A stretch of DNA of 64,000 bases from Nitrospirota bacterium (lineage in GTDB: Bacteria; Nitrospirota; UBA9217), in NCBI GenBank assembly GCA_035623825.1, contig DASPSR010000005.1, positions 1-64,000 on the forward strand. Direction: 5' to 3'. The stretch's first letter is position 1. Every line of letters begins with the position of its first letter. Shown one piece after another: positions 33,018-51,630 of the stretch. Made by a program: the position numbers and the translations under genes. Below the pieces are notes generated by a model, which worked only from the letters and a program-made list of their open reading frames with translations, did no database searches and was not told where the DNA came from.

Positions 33018-34184
33018 CTAATCTGTTGCTAGAAACCCCTGTACCAGTCTTTTGATCTCCAAATGATGCACCGGAATGTTCGGTACGTCCTTGTTCCCGG
33101 GAATCGCCAGAACATGGATGAACGCTGGACCTTTCCGCGGGCCTCTCATCGCACCCACCAAATCCTTCGCGTCCGCCACTTTATCCGTATTCCTGATCCC
33201 GAACCCTTTCGCCACCTGCTCAAGGTCTACGCAGGACGACGCAAACGTCGGCTGGTTTCCGGTGGAGCCATAGGCGCCGTTATCGATGGCGACGATCGTG
33301 AGGTTTTTCGGCGCAAGAAAGGCGGCCGTTGCCAGCGCACCTGGGTTCATAAGGAGACTTCCGTCTCCGTCAATGACGACCACCTCTTTTTTCGAGTTCT
33401 GTGCTATGCCGAGGCCGATGGGCGTGGCCATGCCCATGCTTCCGAGCATGTAGAAGTTCGAAGGCTGGTGCTTTATGAGGTAAAGCTCCTTGGAGGGCCA
33501 GCCGAGATTACTGACAACGACTTTCTTTTCAAGATATGGCGCGATTAGCTGGAGGATTTCGAACCTTGTACACTGCGCGGTTTGCATTCCTTTTGCCTCC
33601 CGCCTTTCAATTAAGATAGCAGGAGCCTCTTCGTCTTTGACGCCGCAGGTAGCTTGACCTGCCGCTGTCGGGGCACGCGGCGCTTCGCAAGCTGAATCTT
33701 CCCACACCGCGGGACTAAGCAGAAAAGCGTGAATCCTGTTCTTCAGAAAAACCCGGGGCAGTTCCCTGTCAACGACGCTGAAATCGTCTCTTGAGTTTAT
33801 CTCGGAAAACGTGATTTCCGCACCGTTCAGGATTCCGGGGAGCCTTTGGCCCATGGGGACCTGGGCCTCGATCTTTTCCTTATAGACGCCCCTCCGGCTC
33901 ACAAAAAGAGCGAGGGGAAGCTCATAGAAAGCAGTGAGGGAAAGAAGGGCGTTGATCATGTTCCCGACACCGGAGCTCTGGACGAACACTGCCGGCCGTC
34001 TGCCCGAGAGTGCGGCGCCCGCACAGATCCCGACACCCTCTTCCTCTCTCGTGAGGGGAACATGATGGAAAGACCCAGCCAGCATCTCAAGCATGGTCTT
34101 GATCTTCTCGCAGGGAAGGGAGGCGGTAAAGTCCACCCCATGCGTCTTGAGCATGGCTAGGAGTTCTTCTTCAGGACGTTGCAT
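33018..34184 (-). CDS. comDE: Sulfopyruvate decarboxylase, fused alpha+beta (ComDE)
   Basis: SLPC, LTREEEGVGICAGA, QSSGVGN, EAQVPMG (alpha half); NLGWPSKELY, NFYMLGSMG, GDGSLLMN TPP motif (beta half). Confidence 0.88.
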   Translation of the reverse strand: MQRPEEELLAMLKTHGVDFTASLPCEKIKTMLEMLAGSFHHVPLTREEEGVGICAGAALSGRRPAVFVQSSGVGNMINALLSLTAFYELPLALFVSRRGVYKEKIEAQVPMGQRLPGILNGAEITFSEINSRDDFSVVDRELPRVFLKNRIHAFLLSPAVWEDSACEAPRAPTAAGQATCGVKDEEAPAILIERREAKGMQTAQCTRFEILQLIAPYLEKKVVVSNLGWPSKELYLIKHQPSNFYMLGSMGMATPIGLGIAQNSKKEVVVIDGDGSLLMNPGALATAAFLAPKNLTIVAIDNGAYGSTGNQPTFASSCVDLEQVAKGFGIRNTDKVADAKDLVGAMRGPRKGPAFIHVLAIPGNKDVPNIPVHHLEIKRLVQGFLATD

Positions 34185-35416
34185 AGCAGGTCCTCGATCT
34201 CCTTCTCCGTTATCTTCTTTGAGATGAACTTGGGAACAACCGTATAGGTCTTTTTCTCCTGCCGCAGTCTTTCTTCACCGCCGCCGGTGATGTTCAGCAA
34301 TACGGTATCGCTCTTCCGGATCGCACCAGTTTGCACGGCTTCTGTGAGCACCGCGACAGCCACAGCGGAGGCAGGCACGATGTCGATGCCCTCCGACTCG
34401 CGGAAGGTCTCTATTGCAGCATACACCGCCTCGTTCCTGACGCCGTACATCGTACCGCCGGTTGCAGTGAGCGCGTCATACACTCCGCCTATTACCGAGT
34501 AGGCAGGATATCGAGTCGAAAGAACCCTGGTCGTGATGTGGGAGATCAGTTCGGGCTTCAGGTCATCGGGAAACAGGGTACGACTGCTCTTGTTCCAGGC
34601 GTGGAGCATGGGCGCAAACGGAAGGTTCTGCCCCAAATGCAGGGTGGTCAGGCGATTGCCAAACCGGCCATCGCGCACGAACCGCTCCGCCATCTCCCAG
34701 GCCCCGATGGCCCCCGTGCCGCTTCCTACGGCCTGAACGTAATGGTCCGGCAGTTTTCCAGTCTTCGAAACCGTCTCAAGCATCACGATGCCAAGGCCGT
34801 CGCGTTTGGCAATGTTCTTCACGCCCCCCTCAAAGGGAAACCCGAGGGTCAGAGCGATCTTCTTCGCAACATCGATGGCGTCCGCATAGTCACCGTCGCC
34901 AACAGCGAGCGTCGGAATGAGTGATGAACGATTGAGATACCACATCTCCATAAGGCACATCCGGGGCACGACGATGACCACCGGATAGCCTGTCACCGCT
35001 GACAAATGCGCAAAGGCGCGTGCCGTGTTCCCGGCAGAGGCGACAATCAGACCTTCGATGCCGTTCTCCCTGGCGTTCTGGAGCACGACCGCCGCTTCGA
35101 ACTCCTTGAACGTGCAAGTCTCAAGGAGCGCCCCTTTCTCAGGCCAGTACCCGCTGAAGGCAATATACAGGTTTTCAAGGCCAAGGCGTTTTGCAAGGCC
35201 CTGTGAGCTGTATACCAGGGGGCCCGGCTGGGCGATCCGCGGGGCATGAATCGGGAGCCAATTGAACCTCCAGACGCCGTCAGAACCGCGCTCAGTAAAA
35301 CGAACATCGCTGTAATCGCTTACGAGAAGCGCATCCTTGCAGTGCTCACAGAAGGCACAGAAGGCGTTCTCAAGAACCTTGCCACAGTTTCTGCATCGAA
35401 TGGAAAAATGGCTCAT
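34157..35416 (-). CDS. Cysteate synthase (PLP, threonine synthase-like; Methanosarcinales type)
   Basis: N-terminal Cys cluster, FSGYWPEKGA..ETCTFKE (PLP Lys), ASAGNTARAF, EGGVKN..RDG, QAVGSGTG, LNITGGG; adjacent to comDE. Confidence 0.88.
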   Translation of the reverse strand: MSHFSIRCRNCGKVLENAFCAFCEHCKDALLVSDYSDVRFTERGSDGVWRFNWLPIHAPRIAQPGPLVYSSQGLAKRLGLENLYIAFSGYWPEKGALLETCTFKEFEAAVVLQNARENGIEGLIVASAGNTARAFAHLSAVTGYPVVIVVPRMCLMEMWYLNRSSLIPTLAVGDGDYADAIDVAKKIALTLGFPFEGGVKNIAKRDGLGIVMLETVSKTGKLPDHYVQAVGSGTGAIGAWEMAERFVRDGRFGNRLTTLHLGQNLPFAPMLHAWNKSSRTLFPDDLKPELISHITTRVLSTRYPAYSVIGGVYDALTATGGTMYGVRNEAVYAAIETFRESEGIDIVPASAVAVAVLTEAVQTGAIRKSDTVLLNITGGGEERLRQEKKTYTVVPKFISKKITEKEIEDLLCNVLKKNS

Positions 35417-36630
35417 GACTTCTCACCTTCGATCATACTGCCGATCAGTTCCATGATGTCAGTGATCTGTATCCGGTTTTTATGTCCTACCATGGCCTCG
35501 TTCACCTTGGCATAACAGGCCGGACAGCTCAGGATAAGGCGGTCAGCCTTCTTTGCCACGGCCTCGTCAATGGTCAATCTGCCTATGGCAACGGCGTTTT
35601 CGTGATACACTTTCCTCGCCGCTCCTCCCGCCCCGCAACACCGCGAGTTCAGTCCATTCCGATCAAACTCCAGCAGCGTGAGTCCCGGTATGCTGCGGAG
35701 CACCTCCCGCGGCTCTTCGATCACACCAACTCCACGGGTGAGATAGCAGGGATCGTGATAAATTACCCGTTCATGCAGCTCTTTTCGATACTTCAGCTTG
35801 CCTTCTTTTACCGCCGCTGCAACGAGTTGTGTGATATGACGGATCTTGAACGGGAGGTCGCTGCCATAGAAAACCGGCCAGTCCCTGCTCATGATATTCA
35901 CGCAACAGGGGCAGGAGCAGACGAGCGTCTTGACACCCCGTGCCCGGTACCCTTCTACAAGCCGCCTGACCAGGTCCGCGAGCAGGTCGTGCTGACCCGT
36001 GATAAAGAGCGGGAAACCGCAGCAAACCTCTTCCTCGGGAGGGAGCATGGTGAAAGGTTCGCCTATGGCGCCCAGAACCAGTGCGTCGCCCCGCACCATG
36101 GGCTGGGCCTCGTAGGCGCCCGTGCACCCAGCATAATACGCGATTTCCGCCCTCTCGGCAACCTTCACCTGCTCAGGGAACCACGGCTGGTAGCGGTCTG
36201 CTGCAGGCTTGTCGTAGGGATTGCCGCTCCTGCTTACAGCGTTCGGCACGCTGGCCTGTGCGCCGATGGGCCCGAGACCGCGCTTGACCATCTCTTTTCT
36301 AAGCGTGGGCCAGAGACGTTGCGTGAAGATGCCGACGGGGCAGTTCTGTCCGCAGGCGCCGCAGGTGGTGCATTCATAAACCGCCTTCACGAAATCTTCG
36401 AGCAGCTTGCGGTCGACCTTTCCCGGCCCGAAGAACCGCGCCTTAAGACCGTCAGTTGCGCGGATAAACTCGCGGAACATACGGATCTTCTCAGGCGGCG
36501 ATACCGTGGGGTTTCCGGTCACATCCTGGATAGGGCAGTGCTTCAGGCACTCTCCGCACTGAGTGCAGGCGTCGATCTCAAGGACCTGTCGGGGAGAGAG
36601 TTCTTCCGTGAATGATCGTTTATTCTTCAT
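35413..36630 (-). CDS. HdrD/DsrK-like Fe-S oxidoreductase (2x[4Fe-4S] plus two CCG domains)
   Basis: CTQCGECLKHCP, CTTCGACGQNCP; YYAGC...EVCCG...CPCC; YHDPC...RCCGAGG...CPAC. Confidence 0.85.
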   Translation of the reverse strand: MKNKRSFTEELSPRQVLEIDACTQCGECLKHCPIQDVTGNPTVSPPEKIRMFREFIRATDGLKARFFGPGKVDRKLLEDFVKAVYECTTCGACGQNCPVGIFTQRLWPTLRKEMVKRGLGPIGAQASVPNAVSRSGNPYDKPAADRYQPWFPEQVKVAERAEIAYYAGCTGAYEAQPMVRGDALVLGAIGEPFTMLPPEEEVCCGFPLFITGQHDLLADLVRRLVEGYRARGVKTLVCSCPCCVNIMSRDWPVFYGSDLPFKIRHITQLVAAAVKEGKLKYRKELHERVIYHDPCYLTRGVGVIEEPREVLRSIPGLTLLEFDRNGLNSRCCGAGGAARKVYHENAVAIGRLTIDEAVAKKADRLILSCPACYAKVNEAMVGHKNRIQITDIMELIGSMIEGEKS

Positions 36631-37306
36631 GCATCACCAAACGAAGCGCCTTCTTCCGCTTTCTCGCCTCCATCATCACCAGCGGGGCCGTGAAGATGTG
36701 CGTTGGCAGGAAAGGGATCAGCACCAGAACAAGAATAAAATGAAGTAAGAACAGCAGACTGGCCGGCGCAGCGGCCGGCCTGAGCGTCACAATGCCCCAT
36801 GCAAACAATTTTACGTCCACAAGATCTGGCTTGTACAGAACGTGCATCAGGACGCCCAGAGAGCTGATTACAAGCACCAGGCAGAGAAGGAACATGTTAG
36901 CAGGAGAGGCATACTTTTCCCACCTGGTGAACAGCCTTATGACTAGGATGTATACCAAAGCAGGAGGAAGGACGTACCCGGCTATCGTTCCCGGCGTCTG
37001 TATGCACCATACCCATGCTGGAACAGGGTTCAGAAAATACCGCAAATGCCGAAGGAGAACCAGAAGAAAGCTTGCGTGGAAAGCCCACTCCCCGACCCAA
37101 AGAGCGGGATTCACCATCAAAAGCCTTGTGAACAGAAAAACATCTGAGACCGTGAGCGCCCATACCTTCGCCGTTGTTGGAGAGGCTGGTTCGGTGGAAA
37201 GTCTTTTCATTGCCTTCCACCATACCAGCCCATGCAGAAGAAACCGCGCCCAGAATACCGAATATGCGCTGTAGGCTGCAACGACCAATATCGTCCCCAT
37301 AGTCAT
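36620..37306 (-). CDS. NarI/DsrM/HdrE-like membrane cytochrome b
   Basis: About five hydrophobic segments; FHASFLLVLLRHLRYFLNPVP (DsrM/HmeC-like) and LLH...PTH provide four candidate heme His ligands. Confidence 0.78.
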   Translation of the reverse strand: MTMGTILVVAAYSAYSVFWARFLLHGLVWWKAMKRLSTEPASPTTAKVWALTVSDVFLFTRLLMVNPALWVGEWAFHASFLLVLLRHLRYFLNPVPAWVWCIQTPGTIAGYVLPPALVYILVIRLFTRWEKYASPANMFLLCLVLVISSLGVLMHVLYKPDLVDVKLFAWGIVTLRPAAAPASLLFLLHFILVLVLIPFLPTHIFTAPLVMMEARKRKKALRLVMHEE

Positions 37307-37328
37307 CAGTCCGGCAAGAGCTGTTTAC

Positions 37329-37337
37329 AGTATAACA
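37329..37337 (-). promoter_or_regulatory. Possible extended -10 promoter for the cytochrome b-hdrD-cysteate synthase-comDE unit
   Basis: TGTTATACT on the minus strand about 22 nt before the ATG at 37306. Confidence 0.4.
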
Positions 37338-37434
37338 CATAAGTCCTTAGGCCCCATTTTCGTCAGCCGACGGCGGATGACAGCGGTATGCAGGACCATT
37401 TGGGCCGTGCGGGTGGTGCGTTGGAGACCACCGG

Positions 37435-37752
37435 TCATTTTTTCACTACGAACGTGATGCTTGCATCCTTGGGGACGTTCAGGCCCGCCTCGGCCTCGAT
37501 TGCTTTCAGAATGCCGGAAGGCACGGGACAGGCCACATGCTTGAGGTGTTTTGATGCTGACCGGTACACGGGATTACTCTGGAAGCCAGTAAGCGCGGCG
37601 AACCGGTCTAGGGTCGCGATGTCTTCCAGCATCTTCTTCACCATGCCGCACTCCGTGTCCAGGGAAATCGCGATTGTTTTGTCTTTCCTGGTTTCTGCTC
37701 TAATGGAGACGGAAAAACCGCATGTTCCTGAGTTGACTATTACCGTTGTCAT
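37435..37752 (-). CDS. Small conserved Cys-containing protein (DUF6951-like)
   Basis: SGTCGF, TECG, HVACPVPSGILKAIEAEAGL pattern. Confidence 0.65.
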   Translation of the reverse strand: MTTVIVNSGTCGFSVSIRAETRKDKTIAISLDTECGMVKKMLEDIATLDRFAALTGFQSNPVYRSASKHLKHVACPVPSGILKAIEAEAGLNVPKDASITFVVKK

Positions 37753-37874
37753 AGGTATTTGTCCCCCTGCCCGACTATGCCTCAAGGTATAAGGGGCGGG
37801 AAGGTCCCGGGAAAGCATCGACCTCCCGCCCCTGTAACCTCATTTATCGCCAGGAGGACCCGGCGATAATCTCT

Positions 37875-39860
37875 CTATGCCTTTATCTCAACGGGGGTGT
37901 TCGATTTTTCGAGCAGCTCCTTCAGATTCGGGAACTTGTCTTTCATGTGCGGGATATGCATTGCTTGCATAAACTCCTTCTCAAAGGCCGGCTCAGTTGC
38001 GATTTCGACGAACTGCACCCAGCGGGCTCGTTCGTCCGCCTCAGTACGCTTCCTGCGGTTCAGAAGCGCCATCCGTGCACCATCACCCGCAGCGTTTCCT
38101 ACGACGACGACCTTCTCGATCGGCACGTCGGGGAACATCCCCAGGGTGAGAGACGCCTCGCGATCGATATGGCTGCCGAAGGCGCCTGCAAGCTCGACGC
38201 GGTCGAGCTTGGTGACGCCCATCTTCTGCATCATGAGCTTTGCACCAGTGTAGAGAGCGCCCTTGGCGAGCTGGAGCGCCCTCACATCACCCTGGGTCAC
38301 GGTGATGTCCTGATTTATCGATGTTTCTTCAGCCCAGGCGAGTACGTATTCGGGCTTCCCGTCGGCATCGCGGCGCACGCGGTTGGTCCCTGTATCCATG
38401 ATGAACTTGCCGCTCTTGTCGATGATGCCCGCCGTGAACATCTGAGCTATGACGTCAATAATGCCGGACCCGCAAATGCCCTTGGCGTTGATCTTGCCCT
38501 CGATGTGGGTGTGCCAGTCAGCCTTGCCGATGACCATGTACTGCGGATCTTTCGTTGCGGGATCGATGCGCACCTTCTCGATCGCCCCGGGAGCGGCACG
38601 CATCCCGAACTTGATCTGGGCGCCCTCGAAGGCCGGACCGGTGGCGCAGGAGGTGGAGCAGACCCGGTCCTTGTTGCCCAAGAGCAGCTCGCCGTTCGTT
38701 CCGATGTCGATGATCAGCACCATCTCGTCCTGATTGTATTGCTCCTGGGCGATCAGCACGCCTACGTTGTCGGCGCCCACGAAGCCGGCCTCGAGAGGCA
38801 GAACATGGATATAAGAGCCGGGGTTGATGCGGATTCCGAGGTCTCGTGCCTTGATATCGAGAGAGCGCTGAACCGCCGGAATAAAAGGAGAGCGTCCGAT
38901 GAAGGTCGGGTTCAGGCCCAAAAAGATATGATGCATGGCAGTATTGAAAACAATGGTGAGGTCATCGATGGTGTGGCCCTGTTGCGGCCCGTCCTTTTGG
39001 ACTTCGGCAACGACCTTCTCGATGATCTCGTTCAAACCGGTGATGATGGAGTCCTGCATGGTCTTGAGGCCGCTTTCGTTCGCCATGGCATACGTGATGC
39101 GTGACATCACGTCTTCTCCGTAGGGTACCTGGGGGTTCATCATCGACTCGGTGTTGATCACCTTGCCCGTTGAGAGGTCGCAAAGGTAGCCCACGCAGGT
39201 CGTGGTGCCGATATCAACCGCCAGACCATAGCACACGTCCACGTGGCCAGGCTCGGCCTTGATGATCTCCCTGCCCTGCCACACCGTGAGCGTGATGGTC
39301 CATTCTCCCTTTCGAAGGATGTCCTGCAGGTCCCGCAGGACCTGGTAGTCCATCGTGAGGCCTTTCAGGCCATAGGTCTCTTCGAGGGCGTTGACAATGC
39401 GCTCGAAGTCCCCGGTCGTCATGTCGTGGAGCGTCGGTTTGGTAAGCGACAGGGGGTACTTCTTGACCGCCGGATCGAGAGCGATGGAGAGCTCTTTGGC
39501 CGCTTTCCGTACCACCTGCTTCCCTGCCCGGGACCGCTCGGGAACAAAGACCTTCAAGTCGCCACGCACCTCGCATTGGCAGGCGAGCCTGATGCCTGGT
39601 CCGTCCTCGGGTTTGATATGCTTTAGCTCGTCCGGAGCCGGGTGATGCGGGAAAATATGCACCATGCCCGACTCGATGTTGTCCTTCTCGAAGTACCCTT
39701 CTTCGATCCGGACTTTGCACTTGCCACAGACCTTTTTGTTGCCGCAGAGCGCCTCGATGTCGACTCCGAGCGCCTGTGCGGCCTGGAGGACTGTCTTTCC
39801 TTCATCAACCTCGCCGCGGCGGCCCGAGGGCTGGAATATCACTTTGTATTTCTTGGACAT
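37875..39860 (-). CDS. ATP-dependent corrinoid reductive activase (RACo/RamA-like, ASKHA)
   Basis: N-terminal [2Fe-2S] CGNKKVCGKC...RLACQC; DIGTTT, DIGTNGE, CATGPAFEG, GICGSG, GNAAG. Confidence 0.92.
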   Translation of the reverse strand: MSKKYKVIFQPSGRRGEVDEGKTVLQAAQALGVDIEALCGNKKVCGKCKVRIEEGYFEKDNIESGMVHIFPHHPAPDELKHIKPEDGPGIRLACQCEVRGDLKVFVPERSRAGKQVVRKAAKELSIALDPAVKKYPLSLTKPTLHDMTTGDFERIVNALEETYGLKGLTMDYQVLRDLQDILRKGEWTITLTVWQGREIIKAEPGHVDVCYGLAVDIGTTTCVGYLCDLSTGKVINTESMMNPQVPYGEDVMSRITYAMANESGLKTMQDSIITGLNEIIEKVVAEVQKDGPQQGHTIDDLTIVFNTAMHHIFLGLNPTFIGRSPFIPAVQRSLDIKARDLGIRINPGSYIHVLPLEAGFVGADNVGVLIAQEQYNQDEMVLIIDIGTNGELLLGNKDRVCSTSCATGPAFEGAQIKFGMRAAPGAIEKVRIDPATKDPQYMVIGKADWHTHIEGKINAKGICGSGIIDVIAQMFTAGIIDKSGKFIMDTGTNRVRRDADGKPEYVLAWAEETSINQDITVTQGDVRALQLAKGALYTGAKLMMQKMGVTKLDRVELAGAFGSHIDREASLTLGMFPDVPIEKVVVVGNAAGDGARMALLNRRKRTEADERARWVQFVEIATEPAFEKEFMQAMHIPHMKDKFPNLKELLEKSNTPVEIKA

Positions 39861-39968: not shown

Positions 39969-40622
39969 TTATTTCTCATTCGTCCCTCGGACCTTCGCAT
40001 TGCTTCTCCCGTAAGGGCAGACATTGATGCAAAAACCGCAATTGGGCTTGCCGACGGTTTTCAATTTGGCCGTCTTGTGGCTCTTACAGACGTCGAGCCT
40101 GACTAGTTCCACGAAAGGGTCGTGACGGGACCACACGGCCCCCGTTATCGCTTTTGACGGGCAGTGCTCGACGCAGAGCTCGCAATCGCCGCACCTGCTT
40201 TGTTCGATCGGCTCGTCCGCCGCAAGGCGAGCATCGGTCAGAACGGTCGCCAGTGAGAGTCGCGGGCCATGCTTGGGATTGATTAGGAGGCCGTTCTTTC
40301 CAACCCAGCCGATACCGGCCGATGTAGCCGCCATCTTATGGGTGAACAGAGAATAGAGCTTGGAGATGAAGGACCCATTCGTGCGGTCCGAGTCAGGCGG
40401 GATGGCAAGGGTGCGGTGGCCCCTGGCCTTCAGGAACCTCACAGTCCGCCGCTGAAGCTTGGCCAGCAGGGCGAGGGTGTTCTCGTTCAATTTTCTGTCA
40501 ACGCCGATCGAAACAGCACGGTTCAGATGGCTGATCTCCCCGCTCAGGTATCCGCGCAGATCAGCAACGCCGACCACTGTGGCGCCAAGATCGAACAGCT
40601 CCTTGCGGAGCGAGGTCTTCAT
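39969..40622 (-). CDS. QueG/reductive dehalogenase-like 2x[4Fe-4S] protein
   Basis: HKMAATSAGIGWVGKNGLLINPKHGPRLSLATVLTD; CGDCELCVEHCP; CGFCINVCP. Confidence 0.8.
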   Translation of the reverse strand: MKTSLRKELFDLGATVVGVADLRGYLSGEISHLNRAVSIGVDRKLNENTLALLAKLQRRTVRFLKARGHRTLAIPPDSDRTNGSFISKLYSLFTHKMAATSAGIGWVGKNGLLINPKHGPRLSLATVLTDARLAADEPIEQSRCGDCELCVEHCPSKAITGAVWSRHDPFVELVRLDVCKSHKTAKLKTVGKPNCGFCINVCPYGRSNAKVRGTNEK

Positions 40623-41314: not shown

Positions 41315-41318
41315 AGGA

Positions 41319-43622: not shown

Positions 43623-44141
43623 TTAAAATACGCCGTGGTCGAACTTTGGCTGTGGAAGATACTCCCACTTCTCCCCCTTGCGGTACTTAGCCTCAATGTC
43701 AAGGCACTTCAGTGCGTACTCGAAGGCATAAGGAATGCCCGGCCCACCAGGCACGAAGCCCCCGAGGATCATGCCCACTGATGCCGCCTCGAAAATCTCG
43801 CCCGTGGTCGCTCCCGCATTGATCGCAGGGATCACGTGGATTATGCACCGCGGCGAGCAGTAACCCACACCGCCTGCCATAAACATCAGTTCCTTCACCT
43901 TACGGGAAAGGGCCCCATCGCCAAATATTGTCGCATAGAAATCGGCGAAAGTCCTCCCCGGTTCAGGGGTCACGGTGTTGATGATCTGAAACATCCTCGG
44001 CACGAACCCGCACTGCTTCTTCATGTACTCGTTCACTTCTTCCAATGTCATTTTCTTATCAGCCATTTTTTTTACCTCCCCTTGCCCGGGTGCTTTCTGT
44101 GCCCCGGAAAAAAGTTTTTTCAACTCCTCCAAGATGCCCAC
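43623..44141 (-). CDS. Carboxymuconolactone decarboxylase/AhpD-like protein (alternative start at 44066)
   Basis: GFVPRMF, DGALSRKVKEL, CSPRCIIH, GATTGEIFEA. Confidence 0.8.
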   Translation of the reverse strand: MGILEELKKLFSGAQKAPGQGEVKKMADKKMTLEEVNEYMKKQCGFVPRMFQIINTVTPEPGRTFADFYATIFGDGALSRKVKELMFMAGGVGYCSPRCIIHVIPAINAGATTGEIFEAASVGMILGGFVPGGPGIPYAFEYALKCLDIEAKYRKGEKWEYLPQPKFDHGVF

Positions 44142-44339
44142 AAACCGCACCTCCTTCCTTACATATAAGCTGGAACCGCCTCACCTCCTTTTCTCTAGTC
44201 CGGATAAACCGGAATCAACAAAATAGCGTCACGGTCACGATGCCGGTTCATCTTTGCGGCCACATAGTCCGTGTTCTCATCTTTCCGTTTCGAACTAAGC
44301 CTCACGATACAAGCCTCGTAACCATATGACGTCACCGTC

Positions 44340-45368
44340 TTATGGTTTCGATTCATGCGCCGCCTGAATGAACTTCCTGATATTGTCATAGGGCACCGTG
44401 GGCGGAATATCGCAGCCCGGCATGAGCACAAAGCCGCCGCCCGTACCGCAAGTTTTAATTACATCCTTGCAGGTGTTTTCCACGTCCTGCACGGAGCCGT
44501 TTAGCATAATCTTCACCGGGTCCACATTACCGCCGAAACACATCTTCCCGTGGAGCACTTCATTTGCCTTTACCATGTCCGTCTTGTGGTCCAGGCTGAT
44601 GCAGCTTGCCCCTGTTTGCGGGAAGAGGTCAAGTCGGTCCGTGGTGTTGCCGCAGATGTGGACCAGCGTATGAACGCCCTTGGACCTCGCCCAGTCAGTG
44701 AATTTCTTGAGATAGGGCACAGCAAACTTCTCGAACTGCTTCCGGGAGATGAGATCTCCCGAGGCTGTGGGGTCCGCAAGGCTTATGACCTCAAGCGTTT
44801 TGTCCGCGACGATTGGTTCGTAGAGGTGGATCAGGAGATCGGTGGCGAAGTCCACGACCTTCTCGACAAAGGCCGGCTTCTTGAAGGTGGCCTTCATCAT
44901 GGCCTCCTCTCCCACGAATCGGGCGCCGAGGGTGAAGGGGCCCCAAGCCGTCATGGTCACAGCATAGGTGTCGCCGATCTTCGCTTTCGTCTGGCGCAAA
45001 GACTTTTTTACAACATTTATGGTCTCGTCCTTGTCTATGTCAGCAATCTTGAGCTTCGCTAGGTCCTCCTCCGACGACACGAAGTGGCCCTCAAGGTCAG
45101 GCGCACCCATCTCGCGGAACTTGATCTTCCCGCCCAGGGCCGAGGCGTGGAAATTATTGTAACCCGAACCGGCGTATACGACATCGCACTGAAGCGTTTC
45201 GCTCATGGCAACGAGCATGGCGGTCATCTTGTCAGCGTTCCGTGCAAGTTCCTCGAATGACGTCCCGAACCGCTTGATGCTCCACATACCCGCGCCGAAG
45301 AGGGTCACCGGCAACCTTTCGGTCTTGCCTCCCTCAAAGGCTTTGAGAATCACGTTCTTCGGTTTCAT
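44340..45368 (-). CDS. MtaA/CmuA-family methylcobamide:thiol methyltransferase (UroD fold) 2
   Basis: GPFTLG, ADPTASGDLIS, Zn motif VHICG...MPGCDIP, GNVDP. Confidence 0.87.
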   Translation of the reverse strand: MKPKNVILKAFEGGKTERLPVTLFGAGMWSIKRFGTSFEELARNADKMTAMLVAMSETLQCDVVYAGSGYNNFHASALGGKIKFREMGAPDLEGHFVSSEEDLAKLKIADIDKDETINVVKKSLRQTKAKIGDTYAVTMTAWGPFTLGARFVGEEAMMKATFKKPAFVEKVVDFATDLLIHLYEPIVADKTLEVISLADPTASGDLISRKQFEKFAVPYLKKFTDWARSKGVHTLVHICGNTTDRLDLFPQTGASCISLDHKTDMVKANEVLHGKMCFGGNVDPVKIMLNGSVQDVENTCKDVIKTCGTGGGFVLMPGCDIPPTVPYDNIRKFIQAAHESKP

Positions 45369-45402: not shown

Positions 45403-45732
45403 TCAGATTGCATAACTGTGGACCATCCGCTTGAAATCTTCAAGGTCAAGAGGCGTCTCAACCGCAGCCTCATTATAATTAGTGCGCCCGAAGCCAAGAC
45501 ACAGGACGGGTATTTCCGGTGCCACGGTCTTGATGATATGCACAGCGTCCTCCGCGGACAGGCCAAAAGGCTCTGAGTCAACGATGATGAGGTCATAACT
45601 CCGGCGCAGGACTTTCTGGACGGCGTGGGCGGGGTGTTCGACAGTTTCCACATTATGCCCTTCATCCCGAAGGACCCCGTACAGGCTCTTAATCATCAGG
45701 GGATTGGAGGAACAGAGGATGATATCTTTCAT
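45403..45732 (-). CDS. Atypical single receiver-domain protein
   Basis: Receiver-like pattern with YDLIIVD but no N-terminal DD and no KP; start set at 45732 because the ATG at 45744 abuts the -12 element, upstream of the predicted transcription start. Confidence 0.6.
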   Translation of the reverse strand: MKDIILCSSNPLMIKSLYGVLRDEGHNVETVEHPAHAVQKVLRRSYDLIIVDSEPFGLSAEDAVHIIKTVAPEIPVLCLGFGRTNYNEAAVETPLDLEDFKRMVHSYAI

Positions 45733-45746
45733 GCTAGCAGACATGG

Positions 45747-45762
45747 TGCAACTACGATGCCA
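45747..45762 (-). promoter_or_regulatory. Sigma54 -24/-12 promoter for the methyltransferase operon
   Basis: TGGCATCGTAGTTGCA on the minus strand (GG-N10-GC). Confidence 0.8.
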
Positions 45763-46045: not shown

Positions 46046-46085
46046 TATGCGTAGTATGAGATCGGATGGATCGTTGTTCTTTGTC

Positions 46086-46952
46086 CTACTTTTTCCCGAT
46101 GGCATGCAGTATTTCGCTCACCGAGTCTGATCGATTCATGGTGTAAAAGTGGAAATACTTCACTCCGTTTTTCATCAGGTCCTCACATTGCCGGACCGCG
46201 AATTCCACGCCGCGCTTCCGCATTTCTTCGGGCATGTCCATCACCGGCTCCATCCTTTCGAGGATTTCCCTCGGCACCGTAGCATTGCAGAGACTGGCGA
46301 ACTCTGCGACTCTCTTACAGTCTATGATCGGCATGATTCCCGGTAGAACGGGTATCGAGATGCCGAGTTTCTCGGCCCGGTCCATGAAGGCGTAATAGTA
46401 GTGGTTGTCGAAGAACATCTGAGTGATGGCGAAATCCGCACCAGCATCGATTTTTTGCTTCGTAAATTCCATGTCTTTCTCTATGCTTGGCGACTGCCCA
46501 TGCCCCTCGGGATACACTGCCACGGCAATAGAAAAAGAGCCGTATTTCTGGATGAGATCGACGAGGTCTCGTGCGTATTTAAACTCTCCCTGGCCTAGGC
46601 TAAAGCATGGTGCGTTCCTTGGCGGGTCGCCGCGTAGCGCAAGAATGCTGTCGATGCCGGCGGCCTGGTACTTCTCAAGGAGCACAGACAGGGACGCCCT
46701 CGTCGCCCCGACGCACGTAAGGTGCGACATTACGGTGAGCTCAGTCTCATTTTTTATCTCTGTAAGGGCCTCGAACGTCCTATCCTGAGTGGTGCCGCCT
46801 GCCCCGTAAGTAACGGAAACGTACAGCGGGTCGAAGACCTTAAGTTCTTGTACGACCTTAATGAACGCGTCTCTTCCCGCATTCGACTTCGGCGGGAAGA
46901 ATTCGAAGGATATCCCTTCCTTCCGCTCTTTCAGTTTTTCTATGAGTTTCAT
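46086..46952 (-). CDS. metF: 5,10-methylenetetrahydrofolate reductase
   Basis: ISFEFFPPK, SVTYGAGG, HLTCVG, LALRGDPP, YPEGH, ITQMFFD, HFYTMN. Confidence 0.95.
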   Translation of the reverse strand: MKLIEKLKERKEGISFEFFPPKSNAGRDAFIKVVQELKVFDPLYVSVTYGAGGTTQDRTFEALTEIKNETELTVMSHLTCVGATRASLSVLLEKYQAAGIDSILALRGDPPRNAPCFSLGQGEFKYARDLVDLIQKYGSFSIAVAVYPEGHGQSPSIEKDMEFTKQKIDAGADFAITQMFFDNHYYYAFMDRAEKLGISIPVLPGIMPIIDCKRVAEFASLCNATVPREILERMEPVMDMPEEMRKRGVEFAVRQCEDLMKNGVKYFHFYTMNRSDSVSEILHAIGKK

Positions 46953-47025
46953 GGTTTTATCCTCTGACAGTATTATCCCTCTTTTGGATGCTTTTTTACC
47001 ATTTTGAAATCATGGTCACATAATG

Positions 47026-47041
47026 TGGCATCGCCATTGCA
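47026..47041 (+). promoter_or_regulatory. Sigma54 -24/-12 promoter upstream of cobW
   Basis: TGGCATCGCCATTGCA (GG-N10-GC), 76 bp before the ATG at 47118. Confidence 0.72.
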
Positions 47042-47117
47042 TTAAACTGAACATCGGATTCTTTTTGCATTCTGTCGCATCGGTGAATTCAGTATAGTAA
47101 ATTAAAGAGACGGTCTT

Positions 47118-47993
47118 ATGAAAACGACAATTGTCTGCGGTTTGCTGGGTTCGGGAAAGACAACGTTTATCAGGAACTTCGTGAAGGGCCTGGCGGGGAA
47201 AGCCGTTGTTCTGGTGAACGATTTCGGCGCCGCAGGAATCGACGGAGAGATATTCTCCACGGACGGAATCGAATCTGTCGAGCTGCCGAGCGGGTGCGTG
47301 TGTTGCACCCTTAAGTTCGACCTGATCACCACGATCCAGAGAATCGCCAAGACGTTCGCTCCAAAGCACCTCCTGATCGAACCGAGCGGTGTTGCATCTC
47401 CTTCCGGCGTGCTTGAGGCACTCGAAGGTGCTGGAATCGGGACGGCGAACGTGGTCGGTATCGTAGATGCCGTGGAGTTTGCCGAACTCTACGAATCGGG
47501 CAGGTACGGAAGCTTCTTCGAGGATCAGATAGCCAACTCCGACGTTATCCTCGTGAACAAGACTGACCTCGCCGGAGAGGCCGCCATCGCTGCTGCGGAA
47601 CGGTTGATCGCATCCATCAATCCCCATGCCGTACTTCTCCGTACGGTGAACGCCGATATTGATATTCCCCTTCCCCGGTCGCCCCAACACCGCAGAATTC
47701 GTTCAGGCGATTGTCATTTCAATTTTGAGACGGTGTCGTTAAGGATCATCAGTAAGCCTGCTTTCTCCGTAATAAAAGACTTTTTTGATGAACTAGCGAA
47801 AGGACGGTTCGGGTCAGTGGCGCGGGCAAAGGCGCTGGTGAACACGCAGGAGGGACCGTACCGGTTCGACACCGCCTACGGCAAGATTAACGCGGTCCGC
47901 TTTGAAAAGGACATCGAGAACAGCAGGCTTGTCGTCATCGGAGAAGCGCTGGACAGGCAGGGCATGGAGCGTGCTCTCTTCGCGGGCATATAA
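47118..47993 (+). CDS. CobW/COG0523 metallochaperone GTPase
   Basis: GLLGSGKTT, NDFG, GCVCC, IEPSG, NKTD. Confidence 0.92.
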   Translation: MKTTIVCGLLGSGKTTFIRNFVKGLAGKAVVLVNDFGAAGIDGEIFSTDGIESVELPSGCVCCTLKFDLITTIQRIAKTFAPKHLLIEPSGVASPSGVLEALEGAGIGTANVVGIVDAVEFAELYESGRYGSFFEDQIANSDVILVNKTDLAGEAAIAAAERLIASINPHAVLLRTVNADIDIPLPRSPQHRRIRSGDCHFNFETVSLRIISKPAFSVIKDFFDELAKGRFGSVARAKALVNTQEGPYRFDTAYGKINAVRFEKDIENSRLVVIGEALDRQGMERALFAGI

Positions 47994-48157
47994 CAGGTTC
48001 TTCAAACACTGAACGTGATTGTATATCGCAGCCTACTGTCGACGTCCCGGCACCGCCAACACGGAAGGAATCATTCACGAGTCCGTGCACATGACGCTGC
48101 TCATTATTGCAGGACATACTTGTCGTTTCACGCTATAGCCGTGATGACGTTATAACA

Positions 48158-49492
48158 CTAGGGATTGATCCCGTACTTTTTGAGTTTAAGGTAAAGGGTT
48201 TTCCGGTCTATCCCCAAGAGTTGGCTTGCTTTGGACTGGTTGTTGTTCGCTTCCTTCAGGACCTGCAGGATGTATTTCTTCTCCATCTCTTCGAGGGAAG
48301 GGTTGGTCCCGAGTTGCGCGACGACAGAAGGGGATGGTATCGAGAGGTCTTCGGCCCCAAGAGTGTCCGATTCGCACAGTATCACTGCCCGTTCGATAAC
48401 ATTCTCGAGTTCCCGCACGTTGCCTGGCCAGTGGTATGCCGCAAGCATTTCCAGGGCATCGGGCGTGAGGCCAGTGATGTGCTTGGCGAGCTTTTTCGCA
48501 TACTTCTCGAGAAAATGGCGGGCAAGCTCCGGGATGTCCTCTTTCCGCTCCCGGAGGTGTGGAATGGCAATGTTGATTACGTTCAATCGGTAAAAGAGGT
48601 CTTCCCTGAACTTTCCGGCCTTGATCAGCTGAGGAATGTCCTTGTTCGTCGCGGCGATTACCCGCACGTCAACAGAGAGGGTCTTGTTCCCGCCCACCCG
48701 CCGGAACTCGCCGGAATCGAGGAACCGAAGGAGTTTTGCCTGGAGCGCGATAGGCATCTCTCCGATCTCATCGAGGAAGAGAGTCCCCTTATCCGCCACT
48801 TCAACGAGTCCGTGCTTCATCTGGTATGCGCTGGTAAAGGCTCCTTTCTCGTGGCCGAAGAGCTCTGACTCGATGAGGTTCTCTGACAGGGAGGCGCAAT
48901 TTAGGGCGATGAACGGAGCCTCCTTGCGCGTGCTGTAGTGCCAGACGGTGTTCGCGACAAGCTCCTTGCCCGTGCCGCTCTCGCCCTGGATGAACACAGG
49001 CGAGTCCGTGGGAGCCACCTTCTGGATGAGCGCGAGGATGTCCTTGAGCTGTTTGCTTTTACCGACGAACTCCAAGGGAGATTCGATTCTGACCAGCTCC
49101 TGCTCCAGAAGCTTGCTCTTGACTGAGAGCCTGCCGTACTCGTAGGCCCGCTCGATGACGATCACCAGCTCATCGAGTTTGTAGGGCTTGGTGAGGTAGT
49201 CATAGGCGCCGTTCTTCATGGCCTCCACCGCGGTCTCCACCGTTGCCTTGCCGGTCAGTACGATGATAGTTGGCGCTTCCGAGTCCTCCTTTAGCTTCTT
49301 CATGAGCGATATTCCGTCCACGCCGGGCATGACGATGTCGAGGAGGATCACATCGAACGAGCGATTGCGCAGGAGCCGCAGGGCCTCGCTTCCGTCTGCG
49401 GTTGCCTCCACGGAATAGCCTTTACGGGTAAGCTCTTTTTTCAGGAGCCTTCTGAATGGCTCTTCATCATCCACGACGAGAATGTTGATCAT
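48158..49492 (-). CDS. Sigma54-dependent response regulator (NtrC/AtoC family)
   Basis: Receiver VDDE/LDIVMP; GESGTGKE, ELFGHEKGAFTSA (GAFTGA variant), FLDEIGE, WPGNVRELEN; Fis HTH. Confidence 0.95.
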   Translation of the reverse strand: MINILVVDDEEPFRRLLKKELTRKGYSVEATADGSEALRLLRNRSFDVILLDIVMPGVDGISLMKKLKEDSEAPTIIVLTGKATVETAVEAMKNGAYDYLTKPYKLDELVIVIERAYEYGRLSVKSKLLEQELVRIESPLEFVGKSKQLKDILALIQKVAPTDSPVFIQGESGTGKELVANTVWHYSTRKEAPFIALNCASLSENLIESELFGHEKGAFTSAYQMKHGLVEVADKGTLFLDEIGEMPIALQAKLLRFLDSGEFRRVGGNKTLSVDVRVIAATNKDIPQLIKAGKFREDLFYRLNVINIAIPHLRERKEDIPELARHFLEKYAKKLAKHITGLTPDALEMLAAYHWPGNVRELENVIERAVILCESDTLGAEDLSIPSPSVVAQLGTNPSLEEMEKKYILQVLKEANNNQSKASQLLGIDRKTLYLKLKKYGINP

Positions 49493-49599
49493 AATAGGAA
49501 ACTCAACGGCGAAGGTGTGAAAAACACGCAGATTTTTCGTAACTGCAAGACTTAAAGATTTCCTCTGCGCTTTTCGCAGTGAAATGCGCCTTTGATTTC

Positions 49600-51630
49600 T
49601 TACTCCTTGCACATGATCGACGGAAGCGTAATGATGAATGTGGCGCCCTTGCCGGGTTCGCTGTCCACATCGATAGCGCCGCCGTGCTCTTCCACAATTT
49701 TATGACAGATGGTAAGGCCGAGCCCGGTCCCTTCACCAACAGGCTTGGTGGTGAAGAAGGGATCGAAGATCTTGTCCAAAAGATCGGGTGGGATCCCCGC
49801 GCCTGTGTCAGAAACTGACAGGCGGATCCGGCTCGGGCAGGCAATGCGTCCGTCTTCCCGCATCAGGTCATCCTCGGCTGTCCGGATGGCGATGCTGCCG
49901 CCCTCGGGAGTGAAGTAGATGGCGTTTAATAATAGGTTCATCAACAGCTGACGCAGGCTGCCGGCGTCTGCGTAGATTTTCGGAATATCCCGGTTCAGGT
50001 TGAGTTCGAGGGTGTGCTTCAGCCGCGCGGTACGGTGCTTGAGCAGGAGAAGGACTTCCTTGATGAGCTCGTTAATGTCGATTTCGCGGAAGGTGCCTCC
50101 GGACGGACGGGCGAACTCGAGCAGGCTTCTGAGGATCGTTTTGCACCGAAAGATTTCATTGTGGATTGTCCTGAGATACTCGGGAAAGTCCTCGAACTCC
50201 CGGATTCCGGCAAGCGACTGGTCGTGGGCCCGGTCGAGGAGCGCCTCCGAGTAGCCCGCAATGATCCCCAGAGGGTTGTTGATCTCGTGAGCGATGCCCG
50301 CGACAAGTGTACCCAGGGAGGCGAGCTTGTCCGACCGGATGAGCTGCTGTTCGAGCCTCCTCTGGGCTGTCACGTCCTTAAGGTAGTGGACGATTGCGTA
50401 GAGCCTGCCCTCCTCGTCGACGAGCGGGTATGCCCAGAAATGGAATATGCCACCGCTAACGCTCTTCATCTCCTGGAACGACGGCCTCTTGCATGAGAGC
50501 GTTTCGGAGCAGAGACAGCCGTCGGTCAGCAGGATGCCGATATTTTCCATGATCTCTGCGCACAGCTTGCCGGTGATCTCTGTTTTGGAATAACCTGTCC
50601 TAGCCAACAGGGTATGATTCGCGCGGATCACCCGTTGTCTGCCGTCCTCGATCCAGACCATGTCGGTGATGGCGTCGAATGTGCGCTCCCACTCCTTCTT
50701 TTCTTTTGAGATCTCCTCGAACAGGAGCGCGTTCTCGAGAGCGACAGCGATATGCTTGGCGACGGGGAGAAGGATCTCGTAGTCTTTCTCCGAATATTGC
50801 GATGGCCTGGTGCTGTCAAAATTGAATACGCCGAGCATGCGGTCATGAAACAAAGGGATGCTGATCGTCGACCGGATGCCTTCGTGCAGAAGCTTTCTGT
50901 CGAGCGGGAACGCAGTTTCGTTCAAATCGTAGCTGATCCAGGGCTGGTTGTTCCTCACGACCCAGCCGGCGCTGGTTCTCTCGATCGGGGCCTTCACCCC
51001 CTTTTTCATCGCGGTCTTCATCTCCGTGTCCAGAGCGAAGATCAAGAGGTTGTCGTCCTTTTCATTGTACAGCAGCAGGCTTGCCCTGCTGTAGTTGATG
51101 ATTTTCCGAAGCTCGGAGACAACCATCCGGAAAATCGTCCCGATGCTCAGGCTGGAATTGATGATACTGCTCAGCTCGTTGATCAGTTCGCCTTGCGTTG
51201 CCCTGTCCCGGTGCGCTCTCGAACCAGGTTCTGAAGGAGCGGCCTTTTGTCCGGCCGCATCACGGACCACGATGATCATTGTGTCCGGCCGATGGTTTCT
51301 GACCGGGATAACGGCGATCCTGGAAGCCAGGGGGCTGCCGTTCTTTCGAAAACAGAAGGATCGCAGAGCCGAGGAGGATTCTCCCCCGGTAGGCACATTT
51401 GTGGAGGGAGAGCGGCCGGCGGATCCGTGCTCGCTGAGAATATTGTCGAGCGATATGAACTTTTCGAGATTCCTGCCGATAACTTCACTGCGCTCATATT
51501 CGAAGAACAGAAGCACATTGTCATTGCAAGAAAGGACCGTCCATTCTTTGTCGACAATGAAGGCAGGCAATCTGAGAACATCGAGCGTTCTTAATAACGC
51601 CGAACTGTCCCTGTCGATCATGATTTTCAT
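49600..51630 (-). CDS. Cytoplasmic PAS-GAF-PAS sensor histidine kinase
   Basis: No TM segment; PAS (CFRKNG), [23 protein letters not shown]-box, DTGAGI, FFTTK, GTGLGL. Confidence 0.92.

Follow-up and report, generated by a model that had tools for sequence, protein, structure and literature searches.

A conserved gene block of sulfate-reducing Nitrospirota joins archaeal-type coenzyme M precursor genes to a corrinoid methyltransferase operon

Our analysis suggests that a thiol resembling coenzyme M (CoM) is made and used by anaerobic bacteria that have no methane metabolism, although this is not proven. The suggestion comes from a block of genes in the DNA of a Nitrospirota bacterium of the UBA9217 lineage (GCA_035623825.1, contig DASPSR010000005.1, positions 1-64,000 of the forward strand; this whole stretch of 64,000 nt is called the window below), in which archaeal-type genes for a CoM precursor are joined to a corrinoid methyltransferase operon. 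The best explanation of the block is a super-operon of two modules under sigma54 control in sulfate-reducing Thermodesulfovibrionia. Module 1 comprises two MtaA-type proteins (MtaA2 and MtaA1), a CMD/AhpD-like protein, an MtrH-family protein, a corrinoid protein, a QueG-like protein, the activator RACo and DUF6951. Module 2 comprises a cytochrome b, an HdrD-like protein, cysteate synthase (CysS) and the fused sulfopyruvate decarboxylase ComDE, and with it we count a protein of the TauA/SsuA fold, SBPl, which is unlinked but tracks the module. The parts are of known kinds; new is their union in anaerobic bacteria, without the archaeal CoM synthase MMP16 (ComF) and with new tracking genes. We propose tentatively, with a confidence somewhat short of even, that these cells make a sulfonate thiol (CoM or a close analogue) which would serve the zinc methyltransferases coupled to folate via MtrH.

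The host genome comprises 3.24 Mb in 67 contigs and is 89.65% complete, and every absence from it reported here is to be read at that completeness. Gene coordinates are those of the longest open reading frames (ORFs), and families were assigned by Pfam and NCBIfam profile scans with curated cut-offs; scores are quoted in bits beside the cut-off. These scans recovered all the genes that the original prediction had named at 33018-51630, and also the bacterial surroundings it had described, with DnaA, DnaN, GyrB, GyrA, SerS, YidC, PurL and ParB among the proteins identified. The block itself is a co-oriented run of 13 ORFs on the minus strand, reaching from 45744 down to 33018. It is read in the order receiver-like protein, MtaA2, CMD/AhpD-like protein, MtrH, MtaA1, corrinoid protein, QueG-like protein, RACo, DUF6951, cytochrome b, HdrD-like protein, cysteate synthase and ComDE. 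Upstream of the run lie MetF, CobW (plus strand), a sigma54 response regulator and a PAS-GAF-PAS kinase. The ORFs of module 2 overlap, by 11 nt between the cytochrome b and the HdrD-like protein, 4 nt between the latter and CysS, and 28 nt between CysS and ComDE, a sign that they form a single translational unit; an overlap of 4 nt also joins the ORFs of the corrinoid protein and the QueG-like protein. A hairpin scan found no terminator-like site between DUF6951 and the cytochrome b.

The last two genes of the run, on the minus strand like all of it, are those of the CoM-precursor route. Cysteate synthase (34157-35416) scores 467.6 against the cut-off of 324.9 for the equivalog TIGR03844. ComDE (33018-34184) passes TIGR03845 with its alpha half (177.2 against 147.95), stays 1.8 bits short of TIGR03846 with its beta half (219.7 against 221.5) and fails as a phosphonopyruvate decarboxylase (210.9 against 312.5). 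Cysteate synthase and fused ComDE are likewise adjacent, and in the same order, in the type 2 (phosphoserine) CoM route of Methanosarcinales and Methanomicrobiales; for Methanosarcina acetivorans a report gives the order cysteate synthase MA3297, ComDE MA3298 and MMP16/ComF MA3299 (PMC12068725). The locus studied here differs from that route in its bacterial host with dsrAB, in the empty MMP16 position, in the HdrD-like/cytochrome b pair coupled upstream and in SBPl, which tracks instead. Searching the genome we found Xsc only below its cut-off (best match 343 against 676) and no PFL-like glycyl-radical enzyme. Because no desulfonation route for sulfoacetaldehyde or isethionate was thus found, the genes of module 2 appear biosynthetic and not catabolic. 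It is well supported by the sequences that the module would be biosynthetic as far as sulfoacetaldehyde, starting from phosphoserine and sulfite along a Methanosarcina-type route.

The HdrD/TfrB-like iron-sulfur protein (35413-36630), whose ORF overlaps both of its neighbours, matches the CCG domain in two stretches (E 1.6e-22), and reading of its sequence gives two C-x2-C-x2-C-x3-C motifs and two complete CCG motifs. Its best NCBIfam match is the thiol-oxidising TfrB (183.4 against 385), DsrK scores 87.4 against 400, and no curated equivalog is passed. The gene before it encodes a membrane cytochrome b of DsrM/NarI-like type (36620-37306; NF038037, E 8.6e-19, below cut-off) with hydrophobic segments that contain His. 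The pair of CCG motifs, the pair of 4Fe-4S motifs and the membrane cytochrome b as its partner mark the protein as probably of HdrD type. HdrDE of Methanosarcina, DsrMK and TfrB likewise combine a membrane cytochrome b with a cytoplasmic protein that has two 4Fe-4S clusters and two CCG domains. The difference from TfrB and DsrK lies in scores below their cut-offs and in the position of the genome's own dsr genes, which are elsewhere; a genome profile search located dsrAB on another contig (C38).

In module 1 the MtrH-family methyl-pterin:corrinoid methyltransferase (42476-43423) exceeds the cut-off of NF002142 (339.6 against 287) and stays below the equivalogs for MtrH (172 against 271.4) and MtgA (163.7 against 550). 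Its relatives in the Protein Data Bank (PDB) are 8z9u_B, the Mtr complex 9qtp and the methylcorrinoid:tetrahydrofolate (THF) methyltransferase 6sj8. Directly after it comes MtaA1 (41319-42338), an MtaA-type zinc methyltransferase that passes both NF004889, the 'methylcobalamin:CoM methyltransferase' subfamily (266.4 against 244), and the MtaA/CmuA family TIGR01463 (246.6 against 235.4). Archaeal MtaA is its sole solved relative besides uroporphyrinogen decarboxylases, and the match to Methanosarcina mazei MtaA (4AY7, E 1.5e-47) keeps H-I-C-G and P-G-C. MtaA2 (44340-45368) is an MtaA/CmuA-type methyltransferase of the URO-D fold (URO-D E 1.9e-60), and in its alignment to 4AY7 (E 1.1e-25) HICG and PGC are also conserved; we take the H-x-C...C residues of both proteins to be zinc ligands. 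The corrinoid protein (40619-41314) has B12-binding_2 and B12-binding domains with the motif D-x-H-x-x-G (here D-V-H-D-I-G) and matches the B12 region of MetH in NCBIfam. RACo (37875-39860), an ATP-dependent reductive activator, holds all of Fer2, RACo_linker, Raco_middle and RACo_C_ter and does not reach the AcsV profile (483.5 against 800).

The remaining members of module 1 are small proteins. The CMD/AhpD-like protein (43623-44150; CMD E 1.6e-5) carries the motif C-S-P-R-C...H and is 69-94% identical in relatives. The short QueG/reductive-dehalogenase-like protein with 2x[4Fe-4S] (39969-40622) matches TIGR00276 (E 5.7e-18) and RDH (E 7.9e-16), both below cut-off. DUF6951 (37435-37752; PF22263, E 2e-30) starts at residue 23 of the longest ORF, 37435-37818; its residues C11, C35, H72 and C75 are invariant (Cys3-His), and its model has a mean confidence (pLDDT) of 92.9. 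Foldseek returned for it weak IscU/SufE-like rows only (E ~0.1), which we treat as a lead.

Public metagenomes contain more than 2600 close homologs of MtaA1, and MtrH and MtaA1 form a constant pair of neighbours in all lineages seen, being adjacent in 20 of the 20 metagenome loci checked. In one representative (P0121, 662 aa) a domain of MtrH type (49% identity) and an MtaA1-like one (58%) are fused. We considered this fusion as a 'Rosetta stone' and downgraded it, since it is the one fused representative and the two are separate ORFs in all 20 related metagenome loci; our argument uses the conserved adjacency alone. At three loci (L098-L100) the MtrH and MtaA1 ORFs lie in one frame with a single stop (TAG or TAA) between them.

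The conservation of the block was followed in 80 related loci, which were fetched by their cysteate synthase (61-83% identity) and searched by local tblastn with the window proteins, and in an even sample of 401 Nitrospirota genomes, where cysteate synthase was counted at E<=1e-60. The relatives that carry CysS are almost all metagenome-assembled genomes (MAGs) labelled Nitrospirota/Thermodesulfovibrionales, including Candidatus Sulfobium, and, judging by record titles and papers, they seem to come from peat (SPRUCE), rice-paddy soil, groundwater and an acidic pit lake. The block order recurs in them. ComDE stands directly after CysS in all 71 loci that extend 1.25 kb or more downstream. An HdrD-like gene (at least 55% identity) stands directly upstream of CysS in 65 of the 71 with at least 1.4 kb upstream (the six without it being L034, L036, L050, L052, L073 and L087), and MtrH, MtaA1, corrinoid protein and RACo upstream of CysS in 50 of the 52 with at least 8.7 kb upstream. 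In the two exceptions, L052 and L089, inserted genes push the genes of module 1 to the edge of the locus. This recurrent gene order in dozens of species-level genomes is an arrangement far beyond chance.

The genome survey agrees with the synteny. Rare co-occurrence of the CoM-precursor and methyltransferase genes would speak against a common system; they are instead found together. Cysteate synthase is present in 70 of the 401 genomes (above the TIGR03844 cut-off in 67) and an MtrH ortholog in 74, with 68 genomes holding both, 2 CysS only, 6 MtrH only and 325 neither, counts that overstate the number of independent events, as kin are not independent. The two CysS-only genomes are 65-68% complete. 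Among the six with MtrH only, two are cut by contig ends, one holds a frameshifted full cluster and three belong to the genus g39. Presence is patchy within genera (for instance 6/9, 2/4 and 3/6), and therefore the block was gained or lost as a unit.

Some copies lie in bins labelled with other phyla. A full cluster is found in a MAG labelled Thermoleophilia (L085), which is without the QueG-like gene and whose SBPl copy holds a stop codon; together with L016 (labelled Betaproteobacteria) and P0020 (labelled Candidatus Sulfotelmatobacter) it makes up a set of full or partial clusters that may reflect either horizontal transfer of the whole block or mis-binning. A MAG labelled Rokuibacteriota (L073:3133-11954) has CysS-ComDE without module 1 nearby and an SBPl of 64% identity. 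Its neighbouring genes are an OsmC-like gene, a split GAF-sigma54 activator, a sulfite-reductase-like NIR_SIR gene upstream and, directly after ComDE, a ThiF-family E1-like enzyme, which could be a sulfur-activation step.

SBPl (51764-52717, plus strand), which the original prediction did not list, any more than the two sigma54-type motifs described below or the lack of a ComF gene, is divergent from the kinase gene. Its sequence starts directly with the first strand of the fold (residue 2), and a signal peptide is absent by eye; the protein may be cytoplasmic, and it may be a sulfonate-binding protein or an enzyme built on the fold of such substrate-binding proteins. It matches TauA 6ssy with E 1.8e-4, its AlphaFold2 model (pLDDT 87.2) finds TauA, SsuA and Thi5 as the best folds (TM score 0.73-0.77), and many of its His and Cys residues are invariant. 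SBPl occurs in 74 of the 401 genomes and in 68 of the 70 that are positive for CysS, and in 0/3 of genus g39; in 12 loci, one of them the Rokubacteria MAG L073, it sits beside CysS-ComDE. Its nearest language-model clusters are mostly archaeal, with Methanobacteriota as the commonest label, and this we regard as a lead only.

Further hints of a sulfonate come from importers. In 4 of the 80 loci (L046, L047, L052, L089) an ABC importer separates module 1 from module 2. In L052 its binding protein exceeds the cut-off of the SsuA aliphatic-sulfonate family TIGR01728 (194.2 against 163.5), and SBPl shares 29% identity with this cluster-embedded SsuA. Some loci also carry inserted chemoreceptor genes (MCP, in at least 6 of the 80) and a second cytochrome b/HdrD pair. 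A distant, unfused module (L098) has an SsuA-like transporter between RACo and MtrH (117.7 bits, below cut-off), and the cluster of the window itself has no importer inside. For a Methanosarcina acetivorans hdrABC mutant, the accessible portion of one report describes sulfonate transporters rising together with CoM genes (PMC12713407). Beside the inserted transporter, chemoreceptor and second cytochrome b/HdrD genes of L052 there is a resolvase/MerR-type recombinase gene in the cluster (L052:7164-7787), which hints at the origin of the insertions.

How could these parts work together? In the reading we prefer, module 2 would convert phosphoserine and sulfite to sulfoacetaldehyde, and sulfoacetaldehyde would become a sulfonate thiol, CoM or a near analogue, in a final step without the archaeal MMP16/COG1900 enzyme. 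That a thiol is formed after sulfoacetaldehyde is plausible because of the Zn-motif methyltransferases, the HdrD-type protein, the CMD/AhpD-like protein and the reported uncatalysed reaction of sulfide with sulfoacetaldehyde. Candidates for the final step would be this uncatalysed reaction with the cell's sulfide, SBPl, or the HdrD-like/cytochrome b pair. CoM is reported to be able to form from sulfide and sulfoacetaldehyde without an enzyme, and the MMP16 deletion mutant of Methanosarcina acetivorans grows at sulfide concentrations of at least 0.4 mM (PMC12068725). An uncatalysed last step is conceivable here because a sulfate reducer makes its own sulfide. The HdrD-like/cytochrome b pair would link the thiol/disulfide couple to the menaquinone pool. 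Module 1 would be a corrinoid methyl-transfer hub, in which MtrH exchanges the methyl group between folate and the corrinoid protein, while MtaA1 and MtaA2 exchange it with thiol(ate) substrates, one of which would be the sulfonate thiol. Such a hub would resemble a soluble three-part Mtr or a methionine synthase (methyl-THF:thiol), and the adjacent MetF would connect it to the Wood-Ljungdahl pathway. In favour of this reading we count the equivalog-level matches of CysS and the ComDE alpha half, the missing desulfonation route, the overlapping ORFs of module 2, the linkage of the two modules, the full cluster of L085, the sulfonate importers and SBPl, the subfamily match of MtaA1, a second MtaA1-like system of the genome that occurs only beside the main cluster in the sample, and the enzyme-free reaction of sulfide.

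Methyl-folate gives up its methyl group to a thiolate in a strongly downhill step; the opposite transfer, from a thioether to folate, is uphill. The hub could therefore methylate a thiol rather than demethylate a thioether. This weakens the direction favoured in the original prediction, from CH3-S-R to CH3-THF, and the opposite direction is at least as likely. The data show what the genes are, that their order is conserved, that they are gained and lost together, that a promoter motif precedes them, and that mcrA, ComF and an Xsc above its cut-off are missing from the genome; from this we infer a thiol as the product, its role as methyl partner of the MtaA proteins, the way in which methyl groups would flow and what the system may be for. 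A more specific version of the proposal, in which CoM itself would be made by the phosphoserine route with a non-COG1900 finish through SBPl and/or the HdrD-like/cytochrome b pair, and would be the carrier of a soluble Mtr-like methyl-folate:CoM system, we consider possible and rather doubtful.

A number of observations weigh against the preferred reading of a sulfonate thiol serving the zinc methyltransferases. MMP16/ComF was searched for in the genome and TIGR03287 matched only ferredoxin-like stretches (best 31 bits against 364), and PF01837/COG1900 had no match; the last step to the thiol is thus unproven, and the product could instead be taurine, isethionate or sulfoacetate. Of the claim that the organism makes CoM or a related thiol, the route to sulfoacetaldehyde is well supported, and the thiol at its end is what we infer. 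A consumer of methyl-CoM was likewise not found in the genome, which gave no match to mcrA (TIGR03256) or to a nitrogenase-like reductase (PF00148). The negative mcrA search bears out the earlier statement that methanogenesis genes are not visible, and we rejected cryptic methane formation, as neither mcrA nor a nitrogenase-like methylthio-alkane reductase is there. Genome-wide, then, mcrA and ComF are absent, and acetyl-CoA synthase, of the Wood-Ljungdahl genes that had been proposed as a search target, is present.

Other points against the reading concern the methyltransferases and the independence of module 1. MtaA2 is below every NCBIfam cut-off (TIGR01463, 187.9 against 235.4; NF004889, 171.8 against 244; and the equivalogs NF040654 and NF041608, 149.8 against 400 and 155.4 against 600), and MtaA1 fails the same MtaA/MtbA equivalogs (254.6 against 400 and 183.8 against 600). 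As zinc sites are known also in some O-demethylases, at least in the available parts of their descriptions, the H-x-C...C motif is no proof of a thiol substrate. The published descriptions of the mec, Cdm, Cmu and MtgABC systems, in the parts accessible to us, show the layout of module 1 in systems that are free of CoM. Three genomes of the genus g39 (G030, G039 and G085; 97, 94 and 81% complete) have the kinase, the regulator and module 1 through DUF6951 intact, and searches of all three found no ComDE, no cysteate synthase (E<=1e-60), no SsuA homolog and no SBPl; after DUF6951 come unrelated genes (radical SAM, SAM methyltransferase, Tex). Metagenome contigs with related MtrH-MtaA1 pairs (48-60% identity to the window proteins) also hold the corrinoid protein, DUF6951 and RACo, and CysS or ComDE was found in 0/23 such loci of at least 5 kb. 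Therefore module 1 can exist without module 2. In two loci (L034, L036) module 1 is followed directly by CysS-ComDE without the cytochrome b/HdrD pair, which is thus not indispensable. Finally, the conserved order is partly due to common descent, because all relatives belong to one bacterial class. The proposed use of CoM in methyl transfer has the sulfonate importers of four relatives and the tracking of SBPl on its side, and the CoM-free layout, g39 and the 23 metagenome loci on the other.

One would argue that the two functions are only physically linked, a conventional substrate:THF methyltransferase system standing next to a separate sulfonate module. In such a case MtaA1 and MtaA2 would activate methoxylated aromatics, methylated thiols or halomethanes, MtrH would work on the folate side with RACo as activator, and the methyl groups would feed MetF and the Wood-Ljungdahl pathway; module 2 would supply a sulfonate (CoM as a general low-molecular-weight thiol, or else taurine or isethionate) that buffers the redox state, helps to handle sulfite or protects against osmotic stress. 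The architecture shared with mec, Cdm, Cmu and MtgABC fits this, as do the acetyl-CoA synthase and dsrAB of the genome with MetF adjacent to the block, the g39 genomes that run module 1 alone, the metagenome modules without CysS or ComDE, and the Rokubacteria MAG L073, which has CysS-ComDE-SBPl with no module 1 nearby. The literature offers two parallels, each in the portion of the source that was available: CoM is an antioxidant thiol in Methanosarcina (PMC12713407), and MtaA in the MAG behind L079 was read as use of methyl compounds via the Wood-Ljungdahl pathway (PMC9326234). However, the modules are joined and co-oriented in 50 of the 52 testable loci and are gained or lost together in the 401-genome sample, with no terminator-like site between DUF6951 and the cytochrome b. 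Sulfonate importers lie inside methyltransferase modules even where biosynthesis is missing (L098), and one would hardly expect a housekeeping thiol to share an inducible sigma54 promoter with a catabolic module. We regard this explanation as a serious one that is nevertheless rather unlikely.

It could also be that the cells scavenge an external methylated sulfonate, such as methyl-CoM from methanogens, or CoM, so that import, demethylation by MtaA, transfer by MtrH to folate and oxidation follow each other and the biosynthetic genes merely top up the carrier. The SsuABC-type importers (4/80 loci) and chemoreceptors embedded in the cluster, the importer of L098 and the inducible control by a sigma54 two-component system are consistent with this notion, and MAGs of relatives seem to come from peat, rice-paddy soil and groundwater, which would be methanogenic settings. 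Nevertheless, it would make no sense for a cell to build the skeleton of the compound it grows on, yet CysS is present in 68 of the 74 genomes that have an MtrH ortholog; moreover, the cluster of the window has no internal importer, g39 has no SsuA homolog, and a transfer from thioether to folate would run uphill. Scavenging is thus improbable. Least probable is the breakdown of organosulfonates for sulfite respiration, in which ComDE would act with a cysteate-synthase-like lyase on cysteate, sulfolactate or sulfopyruvate, the sulfite set free would pass to DsrAB and the HdrD/cytochrome b pair would take part in electron transfer. ComDE has a catabolic role in some aerobic bacteria, dsrAB is present and some relatives have sulfonate importers. 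Against this, the genome offers neither an Xsc above cut-off nor a glycyl-radical enzyme that would free sulfite from sulfoacetaldehyde or isethionate, gaps which had already made sulfonate dissimilation an unlikely candidate; the pyridoxal-phosphate (PLP) enzyme scores as a true cysteate synthase equivalog, and the methyltransferase module would be left unexplained.

The block can be set beside several known systems. With the MtaA, MtbA and MtsA proteins of methanogens its methyltransferases share the URO-D fold, the H-x-C...C motif and the likeness to 4AY7, and its MtrH-family protein resembles MtrH of the solved Mtr complexes, so that MtrH, the MtaA proteins and the corrinoid protein could, judged by their families, perform the net reaction of Mtr in soluble form. 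It differs from the methanogen systems in scores below the equivalog cut-offs for MtaA, MtbA and MtrH, in having no membrane Mtr subunits and no MCR, and in its pterin, which is presumably folate. The bacterial mec, Cmu and Cdm systems, O-demethylases and MtgABC have in common with it an MtaA/CmuA- or UroD-type enzyme, a corrinoid protein, a folate methyltransferase, RACo and a kinase or regulator, as far as the accessible parts of the descriptions go; none of these systems is reported there alongside genes for the CoM precursor, a pair of HdrD and cytochrome b, or proteins that bind sulfonates. Unlike them, the block has two Zn-motif MtaA-type enzymes and the conserved CMD/AhpD-like, QueG-like and DUF6951 proteins. 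Methionine synthase MetH shares its logic of a pterin-side methyltransferase, a B12 domain, a Zn-thiolate methyltransferase and a reactivation module; in contrast to MetH, the block spreads these parts over separate polypeptides from families of a different kind (MtrH, URO-D, RACo), and its thiol is presumably one other than homocysteine. The sole known bacterial CoM synthesis (PMC9457059), that of Xanthobacter XcbB-E in aerobic alkene oxidisers, starts instead from phosphoenolpyruvate and involves an aspartase-family enzyme, and CoM is used there in epoxide carboxylation; genes and physiology are other ones as well.

The control of the block appears to lie with its flanking genes. A sigma54-type -24/-12 motif (45748-45762, minus strand) is located directly upstream of the operon's first ORF, a small receiver-like protein (45403-45744; Response_reg E 1.1e-5, below cut-off) that is kept in relatives with 36-62% identity. 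A second such motif, TGGCAT-N5-TTGC (47026-47040, plus strand), stands upstream of cobW, and the two are the only matches to the consensus with one mismatch in the 64-kb window. In L034, L058, L069, L086, L093, L095 and L096 an exact motif precedes the small receiver gene at the corresponding position. A scan for sigma70 promoters returned 11 sites where 6.7 were expected, none of them compelling, and no Rfam family (riboswitch) was found inside the cluster. Between the operon and the regulators lie methylenetetrahydrofolate reductase MetF (46086-46952, minus strand; TIGR00676, 337.2 against 293.7), which is followed by a terminator-like hairpin (46030-46016), and the CobW/COG0523 metallochaperone GTPase (47118-47993, plus strand; cobW E 2.5e-37). 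The sigma54-dependent response regulator (48158-49612, minus strand) has a receiver, an AAA+ domain (Sigma54_activat E 1.6e-70) and a Fis-type helix-turn-helix. The sensor histidine kinase (49600-51630, minus strand) has the Pfam domains PAS-GAF-PAS-HisKA-HATPase and is probably cytoplasmic, as a clear transmembrane segment was not seen in its sequence (the top 19-residue hydropathy, 1.62, lies inside the GAF domain). Orthologs of the kinase flank the cluster in L011, L012, L025, L028, L093 and L096.

Two further loci of the same genome hold paralogs of module 1 proteins. On contig C9 (9000-27000; L091) there is a second corrinoid methyltransferase cluster with a PAS kinase, a LuxR-type regulator and a paralog of MtaA1 (52% identity; NF004889, 254 bits against 244). 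Its further genes encode CobW, CbbQ/NorQ-type, VWA and DUF2284 proteins, a second URO-D protein, a corrinoid protein (57%), RACo (55%) and CobT. The MtaA1-like gene of this cluster has orthologs in 10 of the 401 genomes, every one of which holds the main cluster. On contig C10 (1-9000; L092) a paralog of MtaA2 (53%) adjoins a QueG-like Fe-S protein fused to an SCP2/alkyl-sulfatase C-terminal domain, in the vicinity of a hybrid-cluster (prismane) protein and a LarC-like nickel-insertion fragment.

Several other features of the window were recorded. Downstream of ComDE, on the opposite strand, an ORF of 215 aa (32323-32970, plus strand) belongs to no known family; its C-terminal end looks ribbon-helix-helix-like by eye, and tblastn gave 40 matches to it among the 80 related loci. 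A protein of 547 aa (52732-54375, minus strand) has ACT-like N-terminal repeats and a metallo-beta-lactamase-type H-x-H-x-D-H region; its PDB matches are weak, and homologs were not found in the related loci. Near serS the genes of the signal recognition particle RNA, of four tRNA-Ser and of one tRNA-Arg are clustered (11871-13885, minus strand), and a tRNA-Asn gene (4058-4133, minus strand) lies beside a stretch of low GC content (37% at 2001-4000).

The original prediction knew of no such system characterised in bacteria, and this agrees with our literature searches, in which pathway and gene terms combined with Nitrospirota names found no description of the block. The MtaA of the MAG behind L079 is mentioned only in passing in the accessible part of its paper (PMC9326234), the main text on the MAG behind L078 does not mention the genes of the block (PMC5812927), and cysteate synthase was noted in one bacterial MAG as a possible taurine route (PMC12019592). 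CoM is known in archaea that metabolise methane or alkanes and in a few aerobic bacteria that oxidise alkenes and make it by another route (PMC9457059). Here we have described archaeal-type precursor genes joined to a corrinoid methyltransferase operon in widespread uncultured sulfate reducers, in 70 of the 401 Nitrospirota genomes sampled. If CoM is made by them, the taxonomic and functional range of this cofactor would widen, and its still-debated last biosynthetic step would have a second, new solution. If CoM is indeed finished by a non-COG1900 step and is the carrier of a soluble Mtr-like system, bacteria lacking methyl-CoM reductase would for the first time be known to have a C1 metabolism that depends on CoM, and a new CoM synthase would be revealed. 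The making of CoM by these bacteria would also mean a hidden link of sulfur and methyl-group cycling in environments that are presumably methane-producing.

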